Counted from the first letter of the stretch, positions 3,777-31,756 are shown. The stretch: 34,512 nucleotides of DNA from a virus (UHGV-0080856), one strand, 5' to 3'. Notes: generated by a model not told the origin, from the letters alone. Translations and numbers: made by a program.

Positions 3777-4165
3777 AATACCTCTTTGACCTGCCGCCCC
3801 GTGACCTTGCACAGAAACCCTACGCCGTGGGATTGCCCCCGGAGGTGGATGCCTGGGCCAAGGCCAACAAGCACCGTATCGGAACCTATCGATCTTGGTG
3901 CAGGCCGCAATATTCCGTTTTTATCGGGAATGTCGATATGCTCCAGGAATTGTGCAACCTGTATGATGACTATGGGTTTATTGCCTACGGCAACACCAAG
4001 GGCGCTGCCGTTCAGCAGCTTTACAACAATCTCCAAATGCGAAAAGCCACGGTGGAAGATGCCTTGCGTTTCCTGCTGGGCTATTTGCAAGACCCGCAAG
4101 AGGCCAAGAAATACGTCGCGGCGTTTGGCGTGGATATGGCGGCGGACGGAAAGGAGGTGGAGTGA
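3773..4165 (+). CDS. Hypothetical protein (130 aa)
   Basis: ATG 3773 with RBS aaaggaggg. ATGA overlap with the upstream gene. Confidence 0.5.
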   Translation: MKYLFDLPPRDLAQKPYAVGLPPEVDAWAKANKHRIGTYRSWCRPQYSVFIGNVDMLQELCNLYDDYGFIAYGNTKGAAVQQLYNNLQMRKATVEDALRFLLGYLQDPQEAKKYVAAFGVDMAADGKEVE

Positions 4166-4932
4166 ATGAGCTGGCTCTTTTCGCGGGCGCTGGTGGAGGA
4201 ATACTTGGAAGCGAGCTGCTCGGATTCCGCACCGTTTGCGCCGTCGAACTCGAACCCTATCCCGCAAGCGTGCTGCTCGCCCGACAAAATGACGGCTTAC
4301 TCCCGCCTTTCCCGGTTTGGGATGACGTACGCACCTTTGACGGACGACCGTGGCGCGGCCTTGTTGACGTGGTATCTGGAGGCTTCCCGTGCCAGGACAT
4401 TTCAGCCGCAGGAAAAGGCGCCGGCATTGACGGCGCCCGCTCCGGCCTCTGGAGGGAAATGCACCGAATTATCAATGAGGTACGACCGGAATTCGCATTC
4501 CTGGAAAACTCACCTCTGCTTGTGGGAAGAGGACTTGCCAGAATCCTCGGTGACCTTGCCCGCATCGGGTATGATGCTGCATGGTGTGTGCTGGGAGCTG
4601 ACGCCGTTGGATTACCCCATCGCCGCGCCAGATTATGGCTTCTTGCCCACCATGCGTGCATGTATCGCCAAATATGGACTGTGTTGGAAGAGAGCGGAGG
4701 AAGGCAAACCAAAAGGGAATTTGGAAGATTACCTGGCATATCTCTATGTCAGGAGCGGTGGGAAGCGAGTCAGGGGGATGTGTGTGTCAGCGTCTTTCGC
4801 CGCCCTGATGATGGGGTGGCCCCAGAAGTGGACGAGCTTAAAGCCCTTGGCAACGGGCAAGTTCCTGCAGTGGCGGCAACTGCATTCCGGGTTTTGCTTG
4901 GCAGATTCCAAGAAGGAAAGGAGGGGGAATGA
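4162..4932 (+). CDS. dcm: DNA (cytosine-5)-methyltransferase
   Basis: Motif I LFAGAGGG, motif IV GGFPCQDIS, ENS/ENV-like FLENSP, Q/R-rich HRRARLW, motif X ALGNGQVPAVAATAF. Presumed GTG start at 4162 after RBS aaggagg. The alternative frame beginning ATG 4166 lacks these motifs. Confidence 0.85.
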   Translation: MNELALFAGAGGGILGSELLGFRTVCAVELEPYPASVLLARQNDGLLPPFPVWDDVRTFDGRPWRGLVDVVSGGFPCQDISAAGKGAGIDGARSGLWREMHRIINEVRPEFAFLENSPLLVGRGLARILGDLARIGYDAAWCVLGADAVGLPHRRARLWLLAHHACMYRQIWTVLEESGGRQTKREFGRLPGISLCQERWEASQGDVCVSVFRRPDDGVAPEVDELKALGNGQVPAVAATAFRVLLGRFQEGKEGE

Positions 4933-5399
4933 AAGCCATTCTTGACGCCTGCTGCGGCTCCCGCATGTTCTGGTTTAACCGCCGCCATCCCGATGTGGTG
5001 TTCATGGACCGCCGGGAGGAAACGCACATGCTTTGCGACGGGCGAACCTTGGAAATCAAGCCGGACGTCGTCGGGGACTTCCGGGAGATGCCTTTCAGCG
5101 ACGGGGCGTTTCTCCTTGTCGTGTTCGACCCTCCGCACCTGATTCACGCCGGGGAATCGTCCTGGCTGGCCAAGAAATACGGAAAACTGGACAGGGAGAC
5201 TTGGCAGGAGGATTTGAAGGCCGGTTTCCGGGAGTGTTTCCGGGTTTTGGAACCGGGCGGCGTTCTGGTGTTCAAATGGTGTGAGGATCAGGTCAGCACG
5301 GCAGAAGTGTTGAAGCTGGCCAGCCATGAACCTTTGTTCGGACACCGCCGCGGGAAGACCGTCTTCCTGGTCTTTATGAAATCTACAACCCCCAACTGA
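4929..5399 (+). CDS. Small DNA amino-methyltransferase (N6-adenine or N4-cytosine type)
   Basis: 156 aa. SAM-binding-like LDACCGS (motif I variant) and catalytic-like VVFDPPH (D/N/S-PP-Y/F/H). ATGA overlap with the C5-MTase gene. Confidence 0.6.
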   Translation: MKAILDACCGSRMFWFNRRHPDVVFMDRREETHMLCDGRTLEIKPDVVGDFREMPFSDGAFLLVVFDPPHLIHAGESSWLAKKYGKLDRETWQEDLKAGFRECFRVLEPGGVLVFKWCEDQVSTAEVLKLASHEPLFGHRRGKTVFLVFMKSTTPN

Positions 5400-5411: not shown

Positions 5412-6179
5412 ATGGCCGGAGACTGGATCAAGGTGGAACACACGACACCGGACAAACCCGAAGTGGTGAAGCTGGCCGGCATCCTTGGAATTGATCAGGA
5501 TGCCGTTGTCGGCAAGCTGCTTCGCCTCTGGATTTGGGCTGATCAACAATCCGTTTCTGGTAACGCCATTACCGTTACAAATTCGTTTCTCGACCGTCTC
5601 GTATTCTGCCCCGGCTTTGCTGCTGGGCTTGTCAAAGTCGGCTGGTTGAATGGACGCGAGGGCCTCCTTTCAATCCCCAATTTTGACCGCCACAACGGCC
5701 AATCCGCCAAGAATAGGGCCAATACGAACCGCCGTGTTGCGAATAGCAGAAAAGCTCATCATGAGCGAGTTGCAAAAACATGTAACGAAAATGTAACGCT
5801 CGAACCGTTACAAAAACCGTTACCAGAGAAGAGAAGAGAAGATAATACTACTACTACAACTACAACCGGGCGCGAGGTTTGCCAATTTCCGAAGGACGTT
5901 TCCGAGGTTGACCGTTTTATGGACGCCCAGGTTCTGCACCCGCTTGGAGACGAGCTGACCCGGTGCGCGGAACGGTTTTTCAACGAACAGTCCGCCGTTG
6001 GATGGCGAAACCGGCACGGCGTCCCCCTGGCGGACTGGCGGCCCATGGCTCGCCAATACGCTGCCACCTGGGCCCGGAACAATGCGGACGCGCCCGGGAT
6101 GAAACCCGCCAATACCGTGGGAACCAAGCCAAAATCAACGACTAAACCATCAAGAAGAGATGACCTCTGGAAAGATTGA
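5412..6179 (+). CDS. Phage replication initiation / replisome organizer protein (O-like, DnaD-like), with an internal poly-Thr linker
   Basis: N-terminus MAGDWIKVEHTTPDKPEVVKLAGILGI...LLRLWIWAD resembles, from memory, phage replisome-organizer N-domains. It is immediately followed by a DnaC-like loader. An iteron cluster lies inside the gene. Confidence 0.6.
   Translation: MAGDWIKVEHTTPDKPEVVKLAGILGIDQDAVVGKLLRLWIWADQQSVSGNAITVTNSFLDRLVFCPGFAAGLVKVGWLNGREGLLSIPNFDRHNGQSAKNRANTNRRVANSRKAHHERVAKTCNENVTLEPLQKPLPEKRREDNTTTTTTTGREVCQFPKDVSEVDRFMDAQVLHPLGDELTRCAERFFNEQSAVGWRNRHGVPLADWRPMARQYAATWARNNADAPGMKPANTVGTKPKSTTKPSRRDDLWKD
5560..5870. promoter_or_regulatory. Candidate origin of replication (ori) inside the organizer gene: GTAACG/CGTTAC iterons, GAGAA x3, ACT/ACA triplet run
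   Basis: The 6-mer core GTAACG or its complement occurs at 5560, 5572, 5781, 5792, 5805 and 5817. It is followed by gagaagagaagagaa and actactactacaactacaacc. Confidence 0.5.
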
Positions 6180-6900
6180 CGAACCCATTAAACCCCAGGG
6201 AGGACTGAAAGGAGTTAATCTTGAAAGCCTCTTGGAATCCATCACCCTGCTTGCCGAGGACGACGGAAGAAGCATTGAAGAGCTGGAAGCGGAAGCGCTG
6301 GCTGCTGAAAAGCAGCGGGAAGAAGAACGCCGGGCGGCATACGAACGCCTGGGCCTGATTGATCGCGGCTTTCCCCGACGCGCTATTGATTGTCTCGACG
6401 AAGTAACTGGGGATCCATGGAAGAAAGCCCTCCGTGACTCCTACCGCCTCGTTTTAACCCCTGGGAGCATCATTGTGCTGAACGGTCGATACGGCACCGG
6501 GAAAACGGTATTGAGCACGTTTCTTGGACGCATCATGTACAGGCGAAAGAAGCGCGTACTCTATACCAAGGCCTATGATTACACGATGGCCTTGAGAGAG
6601 ACGTTTAACGGCAACGGCTTAGAATCCGATGTCATGAAGCGATACAAGGCGCCGTATCTTCTGGTGCTGGACGAGTATCACGAGGTCAAGGACACGGACT
6701 TTGCAGGCGCTGCGCTGGAACGGCTCATTGACTACCGGCACCAGAACGGCAAACCGACCATCATCATCGCCAACTACAGCCCCGCCGCCCTTGAAGATCG
6801 ACTCGGGCCGGCCATTGTTTCCCGCATCCACCTTTGCGGCACCATCATTACCTGCAATTGGACATCCTACCGCGAAATCAACTACCATCCCCGGGAATAG
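6160..6900 (+). CDS. dnaC: DnaC/IstB-like AAA+ helicase loader
   Basis: Walker A NGRYGTGKT, Walker B LLVLDEYH, sensor-like IIIANYS. Overlaps the organizer gene by 20 nt. Confidence 0.8.
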   Translation: MTSGKIDEPIKPQGGLKGVNLESLLESITLLAEDDGRSIEELEAEALAAEKQREEERRAAYERLGLIDRGFPRRAIDCLDEVTGDPWKKALRDSYRLVLTPGSIIVLNGRYGTGKTVLSTFLGRIMYRRKKRVLYTKAYDYTMALRETFNGNGLESDVMKRYKAPYLLVLDEYHEVKDTDFAGAALERLIDYRHQNGKPTIIIANYSPAALEDRLGPAIVSRIHLCGTIITCNWTSYREINYHPRE

Positions 6901-6934
6901 CCCTGGAATCTCGTATACCCTGGAATCTCGTATA
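6901..6934. repeat. Perfect tandem duplication of a 17-bp unit (ccctggaatctcgtata x2) between convergent genes
   Basis: Read directly: ccctggaatctcgtata ccctggaatctcgtata. Confidence 0.9.
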
Positions 6935-6937
6935 GGT

Positions 6938-7138
6938 CTATTCGTCCGGCAATCCGTGACGGGTGATTAGCTCCATCAACAGCTCCATGGAAGGACTCGT
7001 TTTTCTGGACCCGCCCAACCATTGCCACACCGCCATTTCCGTCACACGCAACATTTGCGCAGCCTTTTTGACCGCAGAAGTTTTGGATCGCAAATGGTAT
7101 CTGGACTGCACCCAATCAACAAATTCTTGAATAGTCAT
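6938..7138 (-). CDS. Small HTH DNA-binding protein (66 aa)
   Basis: HTH-like segment KKAAQMLRVTEMAVWQWLGG. Last gene of the minus-strand cassette. Confidence 0.5.
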   Translation of the reverse strand: MTIQEFVDWVQSRYHLRSKTSAVKKAAQMLRVTEMAVWQWLGGSRKTSPSMELLMELITRHGLPDE

Positions 7139-7177
7139 AGCTGTGCCAGGGCGGCATGCACCGCCCTGGAATCATGG

Positions 7178-7501
7178 TTAGAGGGCTTCAACGCGGTCGG
7201 AGTCCTGGAACCAGTTAAGGTTTTCCGGGTCTATCTCTTCACCTTTCACCTGCGTGAAAGTCATGAAGATTTCCACGGGGTTTCCGTTTTCGTCGTATCC
7301 GGGCGCGGAGTATTCCTCGGTGTATTCGTCCCCGTCTTCCGCGTCGTTGTAGCATCCGGCAAAAAGACGATTGGTTAATTCCATTTGGCGAGCAGCATAG
7401 TAGGTGTGTCCTTCAAAATCATAGCTACCGAATTCGCGTTCAAGCGCGCTCAGATTGATTTCTTCGCCGTCTTCCGTGGTGATGATTTTGTTGTCGTTCA
7501 T
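7178..7501 (-). CDS. Highly acidic small protein (107 aa; about 29 D/E vs 6 K/R). Candidate DNA-mimic or anti-restriction type protein
   Basis: ATG at 7501 (MNDNKIITTEDGEEINLSALEREFGSYDFEGHTYY...). The strong negative charge is a feature shared with Ocr/ArdA-like proteins. Function not established. Confidence 0.45.
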   Translation of the reverse strand: MNDNKIITTEDGEEINLSALEREFGSYDFEGHTYYAARQMELTNRLFAGCYNDAEDGDEYTEEYSAPGYDENGNPVEIFMTFTQVKGEEIDPENLNWFQDSDRVEAL

Positions 7502-7572
7502 TGTCTTGTTCTTTCTGATTTGGTTTTGGATTGTGTCTTCGTTCGGTCCCTTACCTCCCGTCAACAAGGTCA

Positions 7573-7601
7573 ATATACTAAACAATGTTTAGTATAGCAA
7601 G
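7573..7601 (-). promoter_or_regulatory. Minus-strand promoter with an embedded 21-bp perfect palindrome operator (ATACTAAACA-A-TGTTTAGTAT)
   Basis: On the minus strand: TTGCTA (7601-7596), 17-nt spacer, TATATT (7578-7573). The palindrome 7575-7595 fills the spacer and the -10. Confidence 0.5.
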
Positions 7602-7659
7602 AGAAAAAATGAAAAAAGAAGATTTTTTTCGTTGTCGTCCTCCATCAAAAAATGATAGG

Positions 7660-7790
7660 AGGAGGCGTTCTTTCTGAACGTTCAGCCCTTCGGGGCTGTG
7701 GATTAAAACGATCGCAAGATCATCCGGGCGGCAACGCCCATTTCCCTTAAAAAGGGGCGGTTTTTTTCGAAGCCGCCCCTTTTTTATTCC
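7660..7790 (+). ncRNA. Candidate small structured RNA: three consecutive tetraloop hairpins (UUCG, GCAA, GCAA) ending in an intrinsic terminator
   Basis: cagccc-UUCG-gggctg (7683-7698), gatc-GCAA-gatc (7710-7721), gggcg-GCAA-cgccc (7726-7739), then aaaaaggggcgg-tttttttcgaag-ccgccccttttttatt (7749-7788). No convincing ORF here (only 22- and 31-codon reading frames). Confidence 0.3.
7749..7785. terminator. Bidirectional rho-independent terminator (A-run, ggggcgg / ccgcccc stem, T-run)
   Basis: aaaaaggggcgg...ccgcccctttttt. The stop codon of the minus-strand zinc-ribbon gene overlaps the T-run. Confidence 0.65.
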
Positions 7791-8308
7791 GGGACGGATG
7801 GAGCCTCCAGGATCCGCCATCCGGCCCCCGTGCCTCTTCCCGATTTGCGGAAACGGGAGGCGGCGCAGGTCAAGAGTTTATAAATCTTTTTGCCTTCGGT
7901 TTCGCCAAAACGGGTGACCATGTACAGCTTGAGATTGCGCGCCGTTACCTCTTCTCCTTCCGGCGACTCCACGCGCCATACTTTGGCGTGGCAATTCGTC
8001 TCAAATTTCCCGGTCCTCGGATGCTTGCGAGGTCCCCAAACGCCACGATGACGGCAGGCCTCCAAAAACGCTGCGGACGTGATTTTTCTCCCTCGCTGGG
8101 CGCGGTTGGCGCACTCCGCAGAGCAGTATTGACGGCGCCACAGTTTTTGGGCCCGGAATACGTTCCCGCACACAGGGCATGTGAGCGTTTCCCAGGCCTC
8201 CGCATAGTGAGCCTGGAGGCAGGCCCGGGAACAGTACACGCTGTCGCGCTTGCCCGCGCGGGGAGGAACATCCTTGCCGCAGATAGGACATCGTTTCATA
8301 CGCCCCAC
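7784..8308 (-). CDS. Tandem FCS/YacG-like zinc-ribbon protein with an uncharacterised C-terminal domain (174 aa)
   Basis: Two repeats of C-P-x-C-G...Y-C-S-x-x-C (CPICGKDVPPRAGKRDSVYCSRAC and CPVCGNVFRAQKLWRRQYCSAEC). The C-x2-C...FCS-x2-C arrangement matches the YacG/MYM-type zinc finger pattern. C-terminal about 90 aa unknown. Confidence 0.55.
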   Translation of the reverse strand: MGRMKRCPICGKDVPPRAGKRDSVYCSRACLQAHYAEAWETLTCPVCGNVFRAQKLWRRQYCSAECANRAQRGRKITSAAFLEACRHRGVWGPRKHPRTGKFETNCHAKVWRVESPEGEEVTARNLKLYMVTRFGETEGKKIYKLLTCAASRFRKSGRGTGAGWRILEAPSVPE

Positions 8309-8351
8309 AGTTTGAAAAATGAGCGTTGCGAATCAAGAACAAACAACGCGC

Positions 8352-8381
8352 TTGAATTGGATATCCGTTGCCTCCTATAAT
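8352..8381 (+). promoter_or_regulatory. Sigma70-like promoter upstream of the packaging/late operon: TTGAAT-18 nt-TATAAT
   Basis: ttgaat 8352-8357, tataat 8376-8381. Divergent from the minus-strand zinc-ribbon gene. Confidence 0.45.
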
Positions 8382-8449
8382 AGAGCCGCAGGAAAAATAA
8401 ACCTATTACCAAAAGAAAACCGGGGCGGCCGAGCCTCTACACCGAAGAA

Positions 8450-8899
8450 TTGGCCGCCGAAATAGCCTCCCGCCTTGCCAACGGAGAAACCATGAAATCC
8501 ATCTGCTCCGATGACCACATGCCGGATGTTTTAACTGTCTGGAGATGGAGACACGAGCGGGAAGATTTTTGTAAACTCATTCAACGCGCGCGGGAAGCGC
8601 AGTCGGAAGCTATGATTGACGCCTGTCAGGAGCTGGCCGACGAAGCCGCGAAAGTCGCCCTTGACCCGGAATGCGGCTCCGCCTCCGTCGCCGCGAAGAA
8701 GCTCGCCATTGAAACCCGGCTGAAAGTCGCCGCCCGCTTCGCGCCGGAGAAATTCGGAGACCGGGTCCGCCAGGATGTCGCCGGCGTTCCCGGCGCGCCG
8801 CTGGAACGGAAAATCACGCTGGACCCCGATCAGCTAGCCCAGCTGCAGGAAGACGAGAAAACCGCGCTGGAAACCATCGCCGGCAAACTCCATCCCTAA
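8450..8899 (+). CDS. terS: Terminase small subunit (HTH type)
   Basis: N-terminal ...EIASRLANGETMKSICSDDHMPDVLTVWRWRHEREDFCKLIQRAREAQSEAMIDACQELADEA matches, from memory, the E-I-x-x-R-[LI]-A-x-G-E-[ST]-[LM]-[RK]-S-I-C...GMP...T-V-x-x-W TerS family located upstream of TerL. Start uncertain: the first canonical start is TTG 8450, and there is an ATG at 8492 with RBS ggaga. The conserved residues extend upstream to about 8400 with no canonical start codon. Confidence 0.6.
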   Translation: MAAEIASRLANGETMKSICSDDHMPDVLTVWRWRHEREDFCKLIQRAREAQSEAMIDACQELADEAAKVALDPECGSASVAAKKLAIETRLKVAARFAPEKFGDRVRQDVAGVPGAPLERKITLDPDQLAQLQEDEKTALETIAGKLHP

Positions 8900-8932: not shown

Positions 8933-10279
8933 TTGCGCCATATCCTCCGCCTTGACCCCTATCCATGGCAGGTGGAGTCCATCAAGGCGTTGTCCCTGGG
9001 TAAGCTGACCCTGGGAGGGAAAAGCGTGGCTCTGGTCGCTCCTAACGGATCCGGCAAGACAAGCAACTGCATCGCTCCCGCCATCCTGTACTTTCTCACC
9101 TGTTTTCCGCGGGGACAGGTCCCCGTTACGTCCTCATCGTGGATGCAGGTGGAAAAGCAGCTCTTTCCCGCGCTCCGCCGCTACATGGACAATCCTTTCT
9201 TTTCCGGCTGGACCTTCAACAAGACGGAGATCCGCACGCCGGAGGGAGGCTTTGCCGTGGGTTTCTCCACCGACAACGCGGGACGTGCGGAAGGATGGCA
9301 TCCAAAAATCTCGCCCGACGTGGATCCTGTCTTTTACGTCCTGGACGAGGCCAAAACCATTCCGGACTCCATCTTCACCGCCGTTTCCCGCTGCACGCTC
9401 TTTCACGCGTTCATCACCTCGTCGCCGGGCGCCGATTCCGGCACCTTCTACGACTGCTTTCACAAAAATTCATCGCTCTACTACAAAATCCGCGTCAAAT
9501 ACGAGGATTGCCCGCACATTGAAATCAACGACCCGGGCAAGGCCGAACGCCTGAAAAAAGAATATGGTGAGCAGTCCTCCTTCTACCGCTCGGCCATCCT
9601 TGGTGAATTCACCGACCTTGACGGACAATCCGTCATTTCCCGCCGCGCTCTCATGGAGCTGGTCAACAACCCGCCTCCCTTCCTGGACACCGGAGAGACC
9701 TGCGGCGGCTTCGACTTTGCCGCGGGAGGCGATGAAAACGTCTTTGCGGCCGGGCAGGGCAACCGTTTTTTCATCGCCGACCACTGGTCCGACCCGGACA
9801 CCGTAGGAGCGCGCGGACGTTTCCGCCGGAAGGCCGCCGAACTCGGCATCTCTGCCGACCGCATCTTTGCCGACGGCGACGGCCTGGGGCTCCCCATCAT
9901 TGACGACTTCCGCGCCGAGGGTTTTCCGGTGCACTCCTACCGGGGTGGTTTCCCGGCGGATGACACGCAAGCTTTTGTCAACCTGCGCGCCCAGGCATGG
10001 CGGGCTCTCGCCCGCGCCATCGAAGAAAAAGAACTCATCCTCGACATTGACGAGGACACGATTGAACAGCTGGTCGCGCCGCGGCTCCAGACGGATGCAA
10101 TAGGCCGCGTCCGCATCGAAAGCAAGGAAGATATGGCAAGGCGCGGCGTTCGCTCCCCCGACCGCGCCGACGCTCTCGTGATGGCCTGGCACGCGCGACG
10201 GAACAGCGGACTGGCGCGGACGCTGGGAGCCTGGTACGCCCGACCCGTGTCATCAAAACGCGCTTACGGGAGATATTAG
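8933..10279 (+). CDS. terL: Terminase large subunit (ATPase plus nuclease)
   Basis: PWQ motif, Walker A ALVAPNGSGKT, Walker B FYVLDEA. Nuclease-domain acidic motifs (FDFAAGGDENVFAAG, ADGDGLG). Start is probably TTG 8933; no ATG near. Confidence 0.85.
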   Translation: MRHILRLDPYPWQVESIKALSLGKLTLGGKSVALVAPNGSGKTSNCIAPAILYFLTCFPRGQVPVTSSSWMQVEKQLFPALRRYMDNPFFSGWTFNKTEIRTPEGGFAVGFSTDNAGRAEGWHPKISPDVDPVFYVLDEAKTIPDSIFTAVSRCTLFHAFITSSPGADSGTFYDCFHKNSSLYYKIRVKYEDCPHIEINDPGKAERLKKEYGEQSSFYRSAILGEFTDLDGQSVISRRALMELVNNPPPFLDTGETCGGFDFAAGGDENVFAAGQGNRFFIADHWSDPDTVGARGRFRRKAAELGISADRIFADGDGLGLPIIDDFRAEGFPVHSYRGGFPADDTQAFVNLRAQAWRALARAIEEKELILDIDEDTIEQLVAPRLQTDAIGRVRIESKEDMARRGVRSPDRADALVMAWHARRNSGLARTLGAWYARPVSSKRAYGRY

Positions 10280-29348: not shown

Positions 29349-30536
29349 CTAACGGGCCAGTCCGACGGCAATCTTGCTCATGGCCTCCTGAACGTCCGCC
29401 GAATCCGGGCGGAAATACACCCGTTCAATCTCTTCGGAGTCGTGGCCGACGATGAAGCGGCACAAATCCGGGGACACACCGGCCAGGCGCAGGACGGTCA
29501 CGGCGGTCGCCCGTAGGCTGTGGAAGCTCTTTTCCGAAAGCCGGTGCCGGTCGCCTCTCACTTCCCCGGGCATCTCTCGGATGATTCCGTACGTTTTCAA
29601 TAGCGTCGTGAACTCCGTGGAAAGCTTGTCGGAACGTCCTCCCGCATGTGCATGGCGAAGCGCGGCCAGGGGAAACACGTAATCGTTCACCCGGTTGAGC
29701 AGACGCCTTTCCAGAACCTCTTTCAAGGGCTGGATGATCGGCTTGTTCATGCGGCGCCGGCTTTTCTGCGTGGTCATGAACAGGAAGGAGTTCTTCAGGT
29801 CAATCTGGTCCCATTTCAGCGTCGCCAGGTCTCCGAGGCGCTGGCCTCCGGTATAGAGGCACACCCTCACCAGATCCGGCCATTCATCCGGGAACCGTTC
29901 AATGATGGTGTTCACTTCCTCCATGGTGAAGGCGCCGCGCAGCTGCTTTTCCGCCTGGTGGTCCGCCCGGGAAGGCATGACGCCCCGGAACGGATTCCGG
30001 GAAAGGATCTCCCGGTCTACAGCGATATTGAACGCGGTGGACAGCGTGGAAACATAGCGGATGACGGTTCCGGCGGAAACGCGCTCCAATTCCGTTTCTA
30101 CAAAATCCTTCGCCATCCCTTTATTCAGGGCGGCCAGCGGCATATTCCGCCGGTCCCCCAGGAACGCCAGAAGCCTGCGGACGGCCATGCCGTCCCGCTC
30201 ATAGGCCCGCTTCTTGTTTTTCCTCCCGTCCAGCCAGTCAAAGAGGAACCGGGTTACCGTCATGCCGTTCATGGTGGCTTTCAGCACGCCGGCCTGGTCC
30301 CCGGCAATGGCCTTCACCTTGTCCAAGTCGAAAACCCCGTACCGGGCTTCTTTCTCCATCTCCTGGGCTACCAGCCGCGCCCGGGCTTCATTCTGGGACA
30401 TGATTGATTTCTTATTGGCTCCCGGAAGCAGCGCCTTGGGAACCACGTCGATGCCGGTGGTTTTCCGAAGCTCTTTGCCGTCCAGGGAGCGGAAGACGGC
30501 CACCCATTTGTTGTTGCGTTTGATGATGCCTGCCAT
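29349..30536 (-). CDS. int: Tyrosine integrase (phage integrase family)
   Basis: C-terminal catalytic signature ...HSLRATAVTVLRLAGVSPDLCRFIVGHDSEEIERVYFRP (R...H-x-x-R...H...Y). N-terminal SAM-like/arm-binding domain. 395 aa. Confidence 0.9.
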   Translation of the reverse strand: MAGIIKRNNKWVAVFRSLDGKELRKTTGIDVVPKALLPGANKKSIMSQNEARARLVAQEMEKEARYGVFDLDKVKAIAGDQAGVLKATMNGMTVTRFLFDWLDGRKNKKRAYERDGMAVRRLLAFLGDRRNMPLAALNKGMAKDFVETELERVSAGTVIRYVSTLSTAFNIAVDREILSRNPFRGVMPSRADHQAEKQLRGAFTMEEVNTIIERFPDEWPDLVRVCLYTGGQRLGDLATLKWDQIDLKNSFLFMTTQKSRRRMNKPIIQPLKEVLERRLLNRVNDYVFPLAALRHAHAGGRSDKLSTEFTTLLKTYGIIREMPGEVRGDRHRLSEKSFHSLRATAVTVLRLAGVSPDLCRFIVGHDSEEIERVYFRPDSADVQEAMSKIAVGLAR

Positions 30537-31127: not shown

Positions 31128-31274
31128 ATGTCGGGTAACGTGATGCTTGTGTTTTTCTTGCTGGCTGTGCTGTTCGGGTTCGTTTGTTTCGGCCTTGGTA
31201 TTGTAGAAGGTTGCCGGAGGACCACGAAGAGGATCTTGGAGAATATTTCAAAAGGGATGAAGAAAGGGGAATGA
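31128..31274 (+). CDS. 48-aa hydrophobic peptide with a charged C-tail (type I toxin-like or small membrane protein)
   Basis: MSGNVMLVFFLLAVLFGFVCFGLGIVEGCRRTTKRILENISKGMKKGE. RBS aagaaaggg. Lies about 55 nt downstream of the poly-C/TATAAT promoter. Too short for the supplied ORF track. Confidence 0.35.
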   Translation: MSGNVMLVFFLLAVLFGFVCFGLGIVEGCRRTTKRILENISKGMKKGE

Positions 31275-31295
31275 ATCATTCCCCCTTGTTTTTCT
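31265..31295. terminator. Bidirectional terminator hairpin (ggggaat-gaatc-attcccc plus T-run) between the convergent small-peptide and repressor genes
   Basis: aaaggggaatgaatcattcccccttgtttttc. Confidence 0.5.
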
Positions 31296-31653
31296 CTTCC
31301 TGTAACCGTTTCATAAGGAGTTCTTTATTGTCTCCTGCATATTCCAAGACGTAAATAATCCAGTCCACGATATTCATGCCGCAGGCTTTCGCATAATTAT
31401 TGAATTCGAGGAATTTATCATGCGATACCTTGAGGTTGATATCAAGATCAGCGATAGAGATTTGGCTATCGTCGGCAGGTTGGGGTTGGTTCATTAGGTT
31501 GTCAATAATGATCAGAGCCTTTTTGGGGATCTCTCTGTTCTTTGACATCCAGTTGTTGACTTGACCGTATGACACTCCGCATTGCTCGGCTAACCATTTT
31601 CTGTCCTTGTTGAGCGTTTTCAGCCACTGATCTATTTCTTGCTTCGTGTACAT
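31276..31653 (-). CDS. XRE-family HTH transcriptional regulator. Likely the prophage maintenance repressor (CI-like)
   Basis: HTH KWLAEQCGVSYGQVNNWMS near the N-terminus. The ORF runs 31276..31689; the ATG at 31653 (MYTKQEIDQW...) is taken as the start. Divergent from cro/ant-side genes. Confidence 0.6.
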   Translation of the reverse strand: MYTKQEIDQWLKTLNKDRKWLAEQCGVSYGQVNNWMSKNREIPKKALIIIDNLMNQPQPADDSQISIADLDINLKVSHDKFLEFNNYAKACGMNIVDWIIYVLEYAGDNKELLMKRLQEEKNKGE

Positions 31654-31663
31654 GGGCAAATAG

Positions 31664-31756
31664 TTATCAGCATCGGCTGATAATTGCAAGTCGAAAATAA
31701 TAACGATATGCTGAAATATTTATTGACTTGTTCAGTATTTGCTGATAATTTCGCCT
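31664..31756. promoter_or_regulatory. Divergent control region: 20-bp palindrome TTATCAGC-ATCG-GCTGATAA (31664-31683) plus further GCTGA(T/A)AAT half-sites (31709-31717, 31740-31749) overlapping a rightward promoter TTGACT(31723)-15 nt-GATAAT(31744)
   Basis: Read directly. Operator-like repeats lie between the repressor gene and the first rightward gene (ATG 31785). Confidence 0.45.

Follow-up and report, generated by a model that had tools for sequence, protein, structure and literature searches.

A putative Aca-type autoregulated anti-defence operon beside an AcrVA3-superfamily gene in a temperate Akkermansia phage or prophage

Published Aca proteins are helix-turn-helix (HTH) or ribbon-helix-helix (RHH) dimers that act on inverted repeats in acr promoters (bioRxiv 10.64898/2026.07.27.740549; PMC7648647), and acr genes have been documented to cluster with orphan methylases and genes for anti-restriction proteins (PMC7648647). 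One anti-CRISPR, AcrVA3 (PDB 9KJA), has a novel fold whose nearest relative is the DNA-binding part of I-HmuI; it is reported not to bind Cas12 directly, dsDNA cleavage in vitro has been reported for it, and residues R50, D60, N76, and K93 of the crystallised construct were reported to be required for activity (PMC13001698). Its orthologue AcrVA3.1 partly inhibits type I-C, and AcrVA3 was reported to be toxic if expressed alone (PMC7556299). Here, we compare these systems with a three-gene, minus-strand cassette at positions 6938–8308 of a 34,512-nucleotide stretch of DNA from the virus UHGV-0080856, the whole of which we call the window and which is a temperate Akkermansia phage or prophage. 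Every candidate species of Akkermansia has type I-C CRISPR-Cas, and one third of A. muciniphila has type II-C; some of the spacers match phages (PMC8278651).

The cassette lies between the gene for a DnaC-like loader and terS. The initial annotation had placed three minus-strand genes there, and open reading frames for all three were found:

6938..7138, minus strand: HTH gene, 66 amino acids, conserved 3' anchor of the operon
7178..7501, minus strand: acidic cargo gene, 107 amino acids, net charge −21, unannotated family
7784..8308, minus strand: gene of the zinc-ribbon protein (ZnR), an open reading frame of 174 amino acids counted from GTG

Judging from sequence comparison, we consider it somewhat more probable than not that an autoregulated anti-defence operon of the Aca type, whose cargo belongs to a new family, lies here beside an AcrVA3-superfamily gene. 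The grounds are an anatomy that matches acr-aca loci, the adjacent AcrVA3-type gene, and the CRISPR types of the host together with the action of an AcrVA3 orthologue on type I-C. The acr-aca-type marks are that the HTH gene is a constant 3' anchor, that the cargo is variable, and that the operator classes are mirrored. The cassette is accessory and mobile, since it is absent from Akkermansia phage DTMo-2021a, varies among sister phages, and is found in other Akkermansia elements. All three genes are under purifying selection (dN/dS, the ratio of nonsynonymous to synonymous substitution rates, 0.09–0.35). The general idea of an anti-defence module with its own repressor, already put forward in the initial annotation, is the best-supported one, given an accessory, variable locus with a mirrored operator and an HTH anchor; the YacG and Ocr specifics that came with it found no support, as described below.

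The regulatory features of the cassette are as follows:

7749..7784, both strands: bidirectional intrinsic terminator, AAAAAGGGGCGG...CCGCCCCTTTTT, a GC stem between an A-run and a T-run
7683..7739, minus strand: two short hairpins (7726–7739 and 7683–7698) between the terminator and the promoter
7508..7677: promoter/operator/leader block of 159 bp, delimited by 11-bp direct repeats GTTCTTTCTGA at 7508–7518 and 7667–7677
7572..7600, minus strand: sigma-70-type promoter of the acidic–HTH operon, TTGCTA-17-TATATT
7574..7596: perfect palindrome of 11+1+11 = 23 bp, TATACTAAACA-A-TGTTTAGTATA, the predicted HTH operator
7534..7561, minus strand: invariant 28-nt leader in the 5' untranslated region, ACGGGAGGTAAGGGACCGAACGAAGACA, containing GGGAGG
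7146..7169, minus strand: GC-rich hairpin in the intercistronic gap of the acidic–HTH pair, CCAGGGCGG-TGCATG-CCGCCCTGG

The palindrome occupies the promoter spacer and overlaps the −10 element. It had been described as a perfect 21-bp palindrome in the spacer; its perfection and position were borne out, but its length is 23 bp. Of all tight palindromes in the window, it is the longest, but its length by itself is just modestly improbable, an 11-bp arm having been reached in 5 of 200 block shuffles, so that its weight lies in position and conservation, not in length. The TTGC... −35 element and the spacing are conserved, and the promoter layout is common to 28 loci (those compared here carry L numbers). 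Three operator classes were distinguished by half-site (ACTAAACA, ACTATAAA, and ACTGCTCA):

Operator class A: ATACTAAACA-T-TGTTTAGTAT
Operator class B: TTACTATAAA-T-TTTATAGTAA
Operator class C: TTACTGCTCA-A-TGAGCATTAA, 9/10 symmetric

Between classes, the changes are symmetric and compensatory, each being mirrored in both arms, as one would expect of a site to which a protein binds as a dimer. We infer that the palindrome is the operator of the HTH protein.

The leader is identical in 28/28 loci, while the synonymous divergence (dS) of the gene behind it is 1.5–1.9, and the stretch from the leader to the ATG has indels of +2 and −6 nt, which disrupt every reading frame. Because the leader is invariant despite this high dS and these frame-breaking indels, we regard it as a constrained non-coding element. 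When the leader was folded as RNA, no conserved structure was convincing; this element may be a regulatory RNA or DNA site, or one to which a protein binds. In the alignment, L019 and L020 lack precisely the 159-bp block. The intercistronic hairpin is retained in place, with other stem sequences, in L002, L018, and L019, and may set the ratio of cargo to regulator, either as an attenuator or as a stabiliser. The bidirectional terminator that had been noted after the first gene was also found; it sits directly 3' of the ZnR stop, and its hairpin is retained with differing stem sequences in eight locus variants. Across these eight variants, RNAalifold gave the two hairpins upstream of the promoter five pairs in which changes on both sides preserve pairing. 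These hairpins are kept even where ZnR is missing (L018–L020) and belong to the mobile regulatory block; they are unlike canonical intrinsic terminators and match no Rfam family. An Rfam scan of 6700–8600 yielded sub-threshold matches alone, driven by terminators. Overall, the conserved unit consists of the promoter/operator, the 28-nt leader, a cargo gene, and the HTH gene.

A homologue of the HTH protein stands behind the cargo in every context found, either with 62–79 amino acids or with approximately 370 amino acids of HTH repeats fused to it. The 66-amino-acid version is found in the sister phages and in the A. muciniphila metagenome-assembled genome L041, versions of 62–70 amino acids in L018–L020, and one of 79 amino acids in L017, where it follows an extra 99-amino-acid gene. 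In L002–L006, the protein has 434 amino acids, with approximately seven HTH repeats fused to the Aca-like HTH (L003, 7185–8489). The dN/dS of the HTH gene is approximately 0.1. By analogy with acr-aca operons, the HTH protein is probably an Aca-like autorepressor. In PADLOC-DB v2, it weakly matches the HTH part of RmrA (E 0.0039, 14 bits), whereas ZnR and the acidic protein have no match at all. Across Pfam, PHROGs, NCBIfam, and PADLOC, none of the three proteins received a family-level assignment, except for the partial phrog_1271 match of ZnR described below.

Two further observations concern the HTH proteins. The repeat unit of the 434-amino-acid protein reads MLGKxPDxEIAxKFGxSxxxVxxxRxKLxI and resembles, by inspection, the N-terminal unit DWxxxSNxEIAxxLxxSYDTVAxKRYxL of AcrVA3 (L042, 162 amino acids). 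L030 (2267–2476) holds a recombinant chimera in which the 66-amino-acid HTH protein is joined to the C-terminus of the 196-amino-acid HTH protein of L021.

The content of the cassette varies widely between genomes. In DTMo-2021a, the replication gene is followed by terS with no cassette in between. The sister phages share the terS, terL, and DnaC flanks, and L026 carries the full trio, whereas ZnR has been precisely lost from L036, L030, and L040, leaving its last codons and the terminator. In place of ZnR, L021 has a 93-amino-acid gene and a 196-amino-acid gene whose product combines an acidic N-terminus with a homologous HTH. In the same phage, the sequence from promoter and operator through the leader to the ATG is identical and drives a pentapeptide-repeat protein (PF00805, E 5.8e-38), accompanied by a gene for a 102-amino-acid unknown protein and then by the same 66-amino-acid HTH gene. 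In L017, there is an extra cargo gene for 99 amino acids and the acidic–HTH pair sits after the tail-fibre gene; in L002–L006, the pair adjoins an S24 repressor on an unrelated phage backbone; and in L018–L020, an integrative element carries it immediately ahead of an orphan N6_N4 methyltransferase and an integrase. Altogether, at least six loci have the pair but no ZnR, and ZnR also occurs without the pair, so that a fixed trio gives way, on this neighbourhood comparison, to two parts that occur separately.

The acidic protein contains 27 D+E and 6 K+R residues, giving a net charge of −21; the earlier value of about −23 was right in being strongly negative and slightly off in size. It has 41 close homologues, in Akkermansia-type contigs, and its dN/dS is 0.11–0.35. 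A profile search against 1.84 billion representatives extended the family to 167 clusters (E<=1e-3). The family is uniformly acidic and mostly 80–110 amino acids long, and the net charge of its short members has a median of −12. On inspection, the N-terminus of some members appears to be extended by an RHH-like or a long acidic segment. As core motif, the family has FG..x.GK.Y.L...A..TNR.F.G...DA..GE.Y..E..A.A.D..GN...V.W.F...KG.E.E. The AlphaFold2 model of the protein (pLDDT 86.1) is mostly beta-strand. No Pfam, PHROG, NCBIfam, or PADLOC model matches the protein or its distant relatives, and a comparison with the PDB gave neither a sequence nor a fold match and no solved DNA mimic. Since both family models and the PDB gave no match, the protein is, as far as a predicted model can tell, without an Ocr or ArdA fold and without a solved analogue. 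An N-terminal extension from TTG 7585 (135 amino acids) was considered and rejected: indels in L002 and L018 break the frame, and this start would lie upstream of the predicted transcription start. Separately, P0017 is a chimera of the acidic-protein N-terminus joined to the ZnR C-terminus.

Among distant acidic-family genes, the one in L014 is followed by another small acidic gene, a gene for ArdC (ArdcN with a Zincin-like metallopeptidase), and one of the DUF1281 type; the L013 member has an orphan Dam methylase and a 128-amino-acid protein of net charge −26 in its vicinity. In Paenibacillus phage BN12 (L008, NC_048688.1, locus 3971–5085), the family member gp31 lies between the lysis genes and the integrase. 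The family looks like anti-defence cargo because it is uniformly acidic, includes apparent RHH-like fusions, has ArdC and orphan methylase neighbours, and is found in the BN12 accessory region. More tentatively, we suggest that the acidic protein may found a widespread, unannotated family of inhibitors that counter host defence by means of a new, beta-rich fold, with at least 167 clusters from phages and mobile elements of several phyla; that in Akkermansia it is placed under a new Aca-type HTH family with a palindromic operator and a leader; and that the whole block, from the terminator hairpins and promoter through the leader and cargo slot to the HTH gene, may serve as a portable expression platform whose counter-defence cargos, be it the acidic protein or a pentapeptide-repeat DNA mimic, are recombined at the start codon. 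This extended proposal seems to us plausible but somewhat short of probable.

The ZnR protein differs in charge and kind. Its true start is probably the ATG at 8299, which gives 171 amino acids, because homologues begin with MKK/MKQ-CPICG; it is basic, with a net charge of +20. Its parts are as follows:

8219..8290, minus strand: zinc ribbon 1, C7-P-I-C10-G ... Y-C26-S-R-A-C30
8111..8179, minus strand: zinc ribbon 2, C44-P-V-C47-G ... Y-C62-S-A-E-C66
7796..8032, minus strand: AcrVA3-type C-terminal domain, residues ~93–171, PRTGKFETNCHAKVW..SPEGE..NLKLYM...GAGWRIL

The two C-P-x-C-G...Y-C-S-x-x-C ribbons that had been read from the sequence are present: both are CPxCG...YCSxxC treble clefs, and 8/8 cysteines are invariant among 12 homologues. 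In total, 17 homologues were found, every one in Akkermansia-type contigs. The C-terminal domain is the best-conserved part of the protein, with a motif that is invariant in homologues. A PDB profile search retrieved 9kja_A (AcrVA3) at E 5.1e-7, and a profile–profile comparison of the ZnR and AcrVA3 families gave 98% probability and E 2.7e-13 over the first 38 domain columns. ZnR also carries the conserved AcrVA3 C-terminal pattern GxETNxHAKxW ... NL ... GW. A search with the C-terminal domain alone returned just three near-identical fragments.

From viral contigs, we recovered full-length AcrVA3 (162 amino acids) and 50 other AcrVA3-domain relatives, all distinct. They have a common C-terminal domain and a variable N-terminus (0–2 zinc ribbons or an HTH): the Moraxella-type proteins have an HTH-like unit, and the gut-phage proteins one or two zinc ribbons. 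Next to 44 AcrVA3-domain genes, we found RHH_1 and HTH_3 genes, a single homologue of AcrIC5, genes for lysis, and an integrase gene, and terminases are absent from this set of neighbours. From the AcrVA3 profile matches and these terminase-free neighbourhoods, we assign ZnR, on sequence, to the AcrVA3 superfamily; it is neither YacG nor a packaging HNH protein. A role as a terminase-associated packaging HNH was considered and rejected, as ZnR has no catalytic motif and lies on the opposite strand, and the neighbours of its relatives are not terminases. In the gut phages L054, L060, L064, L078, and L108, AcrVA3-domain genes with a single zinc ribbon are followed, 13–15 nt downstream, by a gene for a ~140-amino-acid protein. 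In L054 (2794–3216), this downstream protein has a C-terminal RHH_1 domain and recalls the RHH-type Aca14 recently reported with AcrVA3.

The initial annotation had tentatively paired a YacG-type ZnR with an Ocr/ArdA-type DNA mimic, that is, a gyrase inhibitor for takeover of host DNA topology and a mimic that blocks restriction. The YacG model (PF03884) scores only 14.6 bits against ZnR (E 0.026; cut-off 25.5), YacG appears at E 0.75–0.99 in the PDB profile search, all zinc-ribbon matches in the Pfam scan are sub-threshold, and the YacG layout of approximately 60 amino acids, with a single ribbon and a GyrB-inserting C-terminal tail, is not that of ZnR. Rather, ribbons 1 and 2 match the middle of phrog_1271, annotated 'HNH endonuclease' (profile positions 177–248/361, E 3.2e-11), which fits them better, and the conserved functional part of ZnR is an AcrVA3-type domain that YacG does not have. 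As for the acidic protein, the strongly negative charge is indeed like that of Ocr and ArdA, but its predicted, mostly beta-strand fold is unlike these and other solved DNA mimics. The presence of a pentapeptide-repeat protein in the same slot of L021 speaks for this interpretation, as gyrase is acted on by pentapeptide-repeat proteins, which show features of DNA mimics (PMC7261183), and for this reason a DNA-mimic-type function for the slot is conceivable. As a whole, we regard the combination of a YacG-like inhibitor and an Ocr/ArdA-type mimic as very improbable.

The phrog_1271 match could also mean that ZnR by itself derives by decay and loss of the catalytic HNH domain from a free-standing homing endonuclease and is a remnant of a selfish element with no anti-defence role. 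The match is confined to the middle of the profile, there is neither a Pfam HNH match nor a His between the cysteine pairs of ZnR that would make up an HNH catalytic motif, and terminase genes adjoin ZnR here and its relative in L015. ZnR is also often deleted or frameshifted (P0013, P0015, and P0016; L036 and L030); the first three resemble frameshifted ZnR genes. However, the full-length ZnR gene is under strong purifying selection (dN/dS 0.09–0.21), its eight cysteines and C-terminal motif are invariant, and 51 distinct HNH-less relatives from gut phages lie beside RHH or HTH regulator genes. These points make decay the least probable of the explanations that we considered.

Some observations weigh against the anti-defence interpretation as a whole. 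With respect to likeness to known proteins, no validated anti-defence protein resembles the acidic protein in sequence or fold. The HTH protein has sub-threshold HTH_23, YdaS, and P22_Cro matches in Pfam, and a profile of five homologues retrieved no PDB chain at E<=10 and hence no relation to a solved Aca. In ZnR, the second half of the C-terminal domain is shortened and the confident alignment with AcrVA3 is confined to the first half. Of the four residues reported as required in AcrVA3, only the Arg has a plausible counterpart: by inspection, R133 possibly corresponds to R50, displaced by two residues, the stretch of D60 and N76 is shortened and unalignable, and K93 is not kept, although NL and the final W align. 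With respect to setting, the cassette is on the strand of the integrase and the CI-like repressor and opposed to the lytic genes, both here and in L002, an orientation typical of lysogeny-expressed morons, defence genes included. Cargo swapping at hot-spots is likewise seen in prophage (P2/P4) defence islands (PMC9122126). Finally, a ZnR homologue with 50% identity in L007 (164–10924) lies between genes for a Lit-like Peptidase_U49, an FRG-domain protein, and a large RHS/YD-repeat protein, a setting more reminiscent of an island of defence or toxin genes than of a phage.

These features of setting are the ones that a prophage defence or superinfection-exclusion moron would have, in which a lysogen expresses ZnR and/or the acidic protein as effectors that protect the host, under the HTH regulator. 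The S24 repressor beside the L002-type module and the co-orientation of the BN12 homologue gp31 with integrase and repressor would fit as well. On the other hand, PADLOC gave no defence-system assignment, and the cargo, of approximately 100–120 amino acids, is acidic without an enzymatic domain or is a pentapeptide-repeat protein, a profile closer to that of an inhibitor. The neighbours of acidic-family genes are of the anti-restriction type (ArdC and orphan methylases), and the nearest characterised relative of ZnR is an anti-CRISPR. We consider a defence moron unlikely, although it is the main rival of the anti-defence reading.

BN12 bears on another alternative, namely that the cassette is a life-cycle regulatory module, a second immunity or anti-immunity region in which ZnR and the HTH protein are transcription factors and the acidic protein either serves as an anti-repressor or antagonises a DNA-binding protein, possibly ZnR, by mimicking DNA. 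The charges of ZnR (+20) and the acidic protein (−21) are complementary, and an adjacency of acidic and zinc-ribbon proteins recurs in the very distant BN12, where the order is gp31, gp30 (phrog_14350), and gp29, the last being a double zinc-ribbon protein of charge +24 with a weak phrog_1271 match (E 8e-4). In L002, the module lies beside a CI-type repressor and a gene for an HTH-like, 170-amino-acid protein that overlaps ZnR. As AcrVA3 is reported to be toxic when alone (PMC7556299), a neutralising partner for ZnR is conceivable. Yet the BN12 similarity is weak: BLASTP between gp29 and ZnR was not significant, and the shared weak PHROG match is the sole link. The 199-amino-acid acidic protein upstream of the ZnR relative in L015 is outside the acidic family (no hmmsearch match at E<=1), so the pairing of ZnR with this family is not general. 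Moreover, ZnR and the acidic–HTH pair are often apart, and a module found at four genomic positions and in a non-phage integrative element, and dispensable in DTMo-2021a, does not look like a core regulator. A regulatory role of this kind therefore appears quite improbable.

Returning to the favoured reading, an Aca-type anti-defence operon beside an AcrVA3-superfamily gene, we propose the following course of events. The cassette would consist of two separable modules, the ZnR gene and the acr-aca-type acidic–HTH operon. ZnR would be a basic DNA-binding protein in which two ribbons replace the N-terminal HTH of AcrVA3. The promoter of the operon would fire on phage entry or in the lysogen, and the acidic protein would act as a stoichiometric decoy or inhibitor of a host defence that targets nucleic acids; the obvious candidates in Akkermansia are type I-C or II-C CRISPR-Cas, restriction systems, and BREX. 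As the HTH protein accumulates, it would bind the palindrome as a dimer and switch the promoter off, with the intercistronic hairpin and the invariant leader probably tuning the cargo:regulator ratio. Of these steps, the defence target, the inhibition, and the binding of the HTH protein to its operator are inferred.

The genomic setting of the cassette is given by the following features:

5412..6179: replication initiator
6160..6900, plus strand: DnaC-like loader, one flank of the cassette
6901..6934: tandem 17-bp repeat, two perfect copies, with the stop codons of the HTH gene and dnaC on either side (3' boundary of the cassette)
8450..8899, plus strand: Sf6-type terS, the other flank
8933..10279: large terminase (terL)
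29349..30536, minus strand: integrase
31276..31689, minus strand: CI-like regulator

The window as a whole (1–34512) resembles a complete, circularly permuted genome of a temperate phage, and from ~8408 onward (terS, terL) it is 88.8% identical to DTMo-2021a. It also encodes RecT, an exonuclease, and two DNA methyltransferases. A recombination/replication module lies at 0.4–6.9 kb, and integrase, CI-like, Cro-like, and Ant genes at 29.3–32.8 kb. It is plausible that, as initially noted, the lytic part has no sizeable minus-strand genes other than the three of the cassette; the other clear genes on that strand are those of the integrase and the CI-like regulator. A second tight palindrome, with 9-bp arms, lies at 31266–31284, at the 3' end of the CI-like gene. 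The GC content of the acidic–HTH operon is approximately 50%, below that of the flanks (56–60%). In the intergenic region between ZnR and terS (8309–8491), a good plus-strand promoter match, TTGAAT-18-TATAAT, was seen at 8352–8381, and no convincing candidate for a ZnR promoter or operator was found. The true start of terS is probably the ATG near 8492, as in L041 and DTMo-2021a, and not the TTG at 8450.

The 17-bp unit at the cassette boundary (TATACGAGATTCCAGGG, minus strand) is a variable-number tandem repeat, with two copies in the window, L026, and L036, and six in the sister phage L021 (~5118–5230 in reverse-complement coordinates). These repeats could be iterons or ori-type sites beside the replication module, or could mark a recombination boundary of the cassette. 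The sequence GATTCCAGGG recurs at 7165–7174, adjoining the intercistronic hairpin.

A. muciniphila is among the major commensals of the gut and a candidate for use as a probiotic, and its phages and type I-C and II-C systems are barely explored experimentally. The cassette, with three uncharacterised protein families, is a good candidate for new phage counter-defence genes. If validated, an anti-defence locus of this kind could provide tools to switch off Akkermansia defences in genetic engineering and phage work. It would also assign a function to a large, unannotated protein family in phages of several phyla, and would show AcrVA3-type domains with zinc-ribbon N-termini to be common in gut phages. 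The chassis itself, made up of the operator classes, the invariant leader, and the HTH anchor, offers a handle for guilt-by-association discovery of cargo in Akkermansia elements.

Among described systems, acr-aca operons (e.g., acrIF8-aca2 and the Aca1–Aca14 families) are the closest in layout: they likewise have an inverted repeat in the promoter spacer and −10 element, a small, variable, often acidic cargo gene first, and a small HTH gene as the conserved 3' anchor. The likeness extends to a prophage or mobile-element setting, to anti-defence neighbours (orphan methylases and an AcrVA3-type gene), and to fusions of cargo and regulator, such as the 196-amino-acid acidic–HTH protein of L021 and the acidic-family members with apparent RHH-like N-termini. 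In contrast to acr-aca operons, the HTH protein has no detectable kinship to a solved Aca, the cargo family is no known Acr, and the operon adds an invariant 28-nt leader and an intercistronic hairpin.

AcrVA3 of Moraxella bovoculi, named 'HNH endonuclease' at NCBI, and ZnR are both basic, prophage-encoded proteins without an HNH catalytic motif, and both adjoin a small regulator gene. They differ in that the N-terminus of ZnR consists of two zinc ribbons and not an HTH-like unit, and in that the second half of its domain is shorter and diverged, with the first W and the K of 'WKGW' lost. In addition, Akkermansia has no reported type V-A system, and the mechanism of AcrVA3 is itself drawn from one in vitro study that claims non-specific dsDNA cleavage. 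With YacG, the DNA gyrase inhibitor, ZnR shares a four-cysteine treble-clef ribbon with similar cysteine spacing, but its ribbon is duplicated and closer to the phrog_1271 fingers, an AcrVA3-type domain is attached, and there is no GyrB-binding tail. The acidic protein, like Ocr, ArdA, and Arn and the pentapeptide-repeat proteins Qnr, McbG, and MfpA, is small, extremely negative, and an accessory on a mobile element, and a genuine pentapeptide-repeat protein fills the same regulated slot in L021; unlike all of these, it is predicted to be mostly beta-strand and has no sequence similarity to them. Taken together, the kind of system is a known one, whereas the acidic family, the HTH family, and the architecture that joins zinc ribbons to an AcrVA3-type domain appear to be new.

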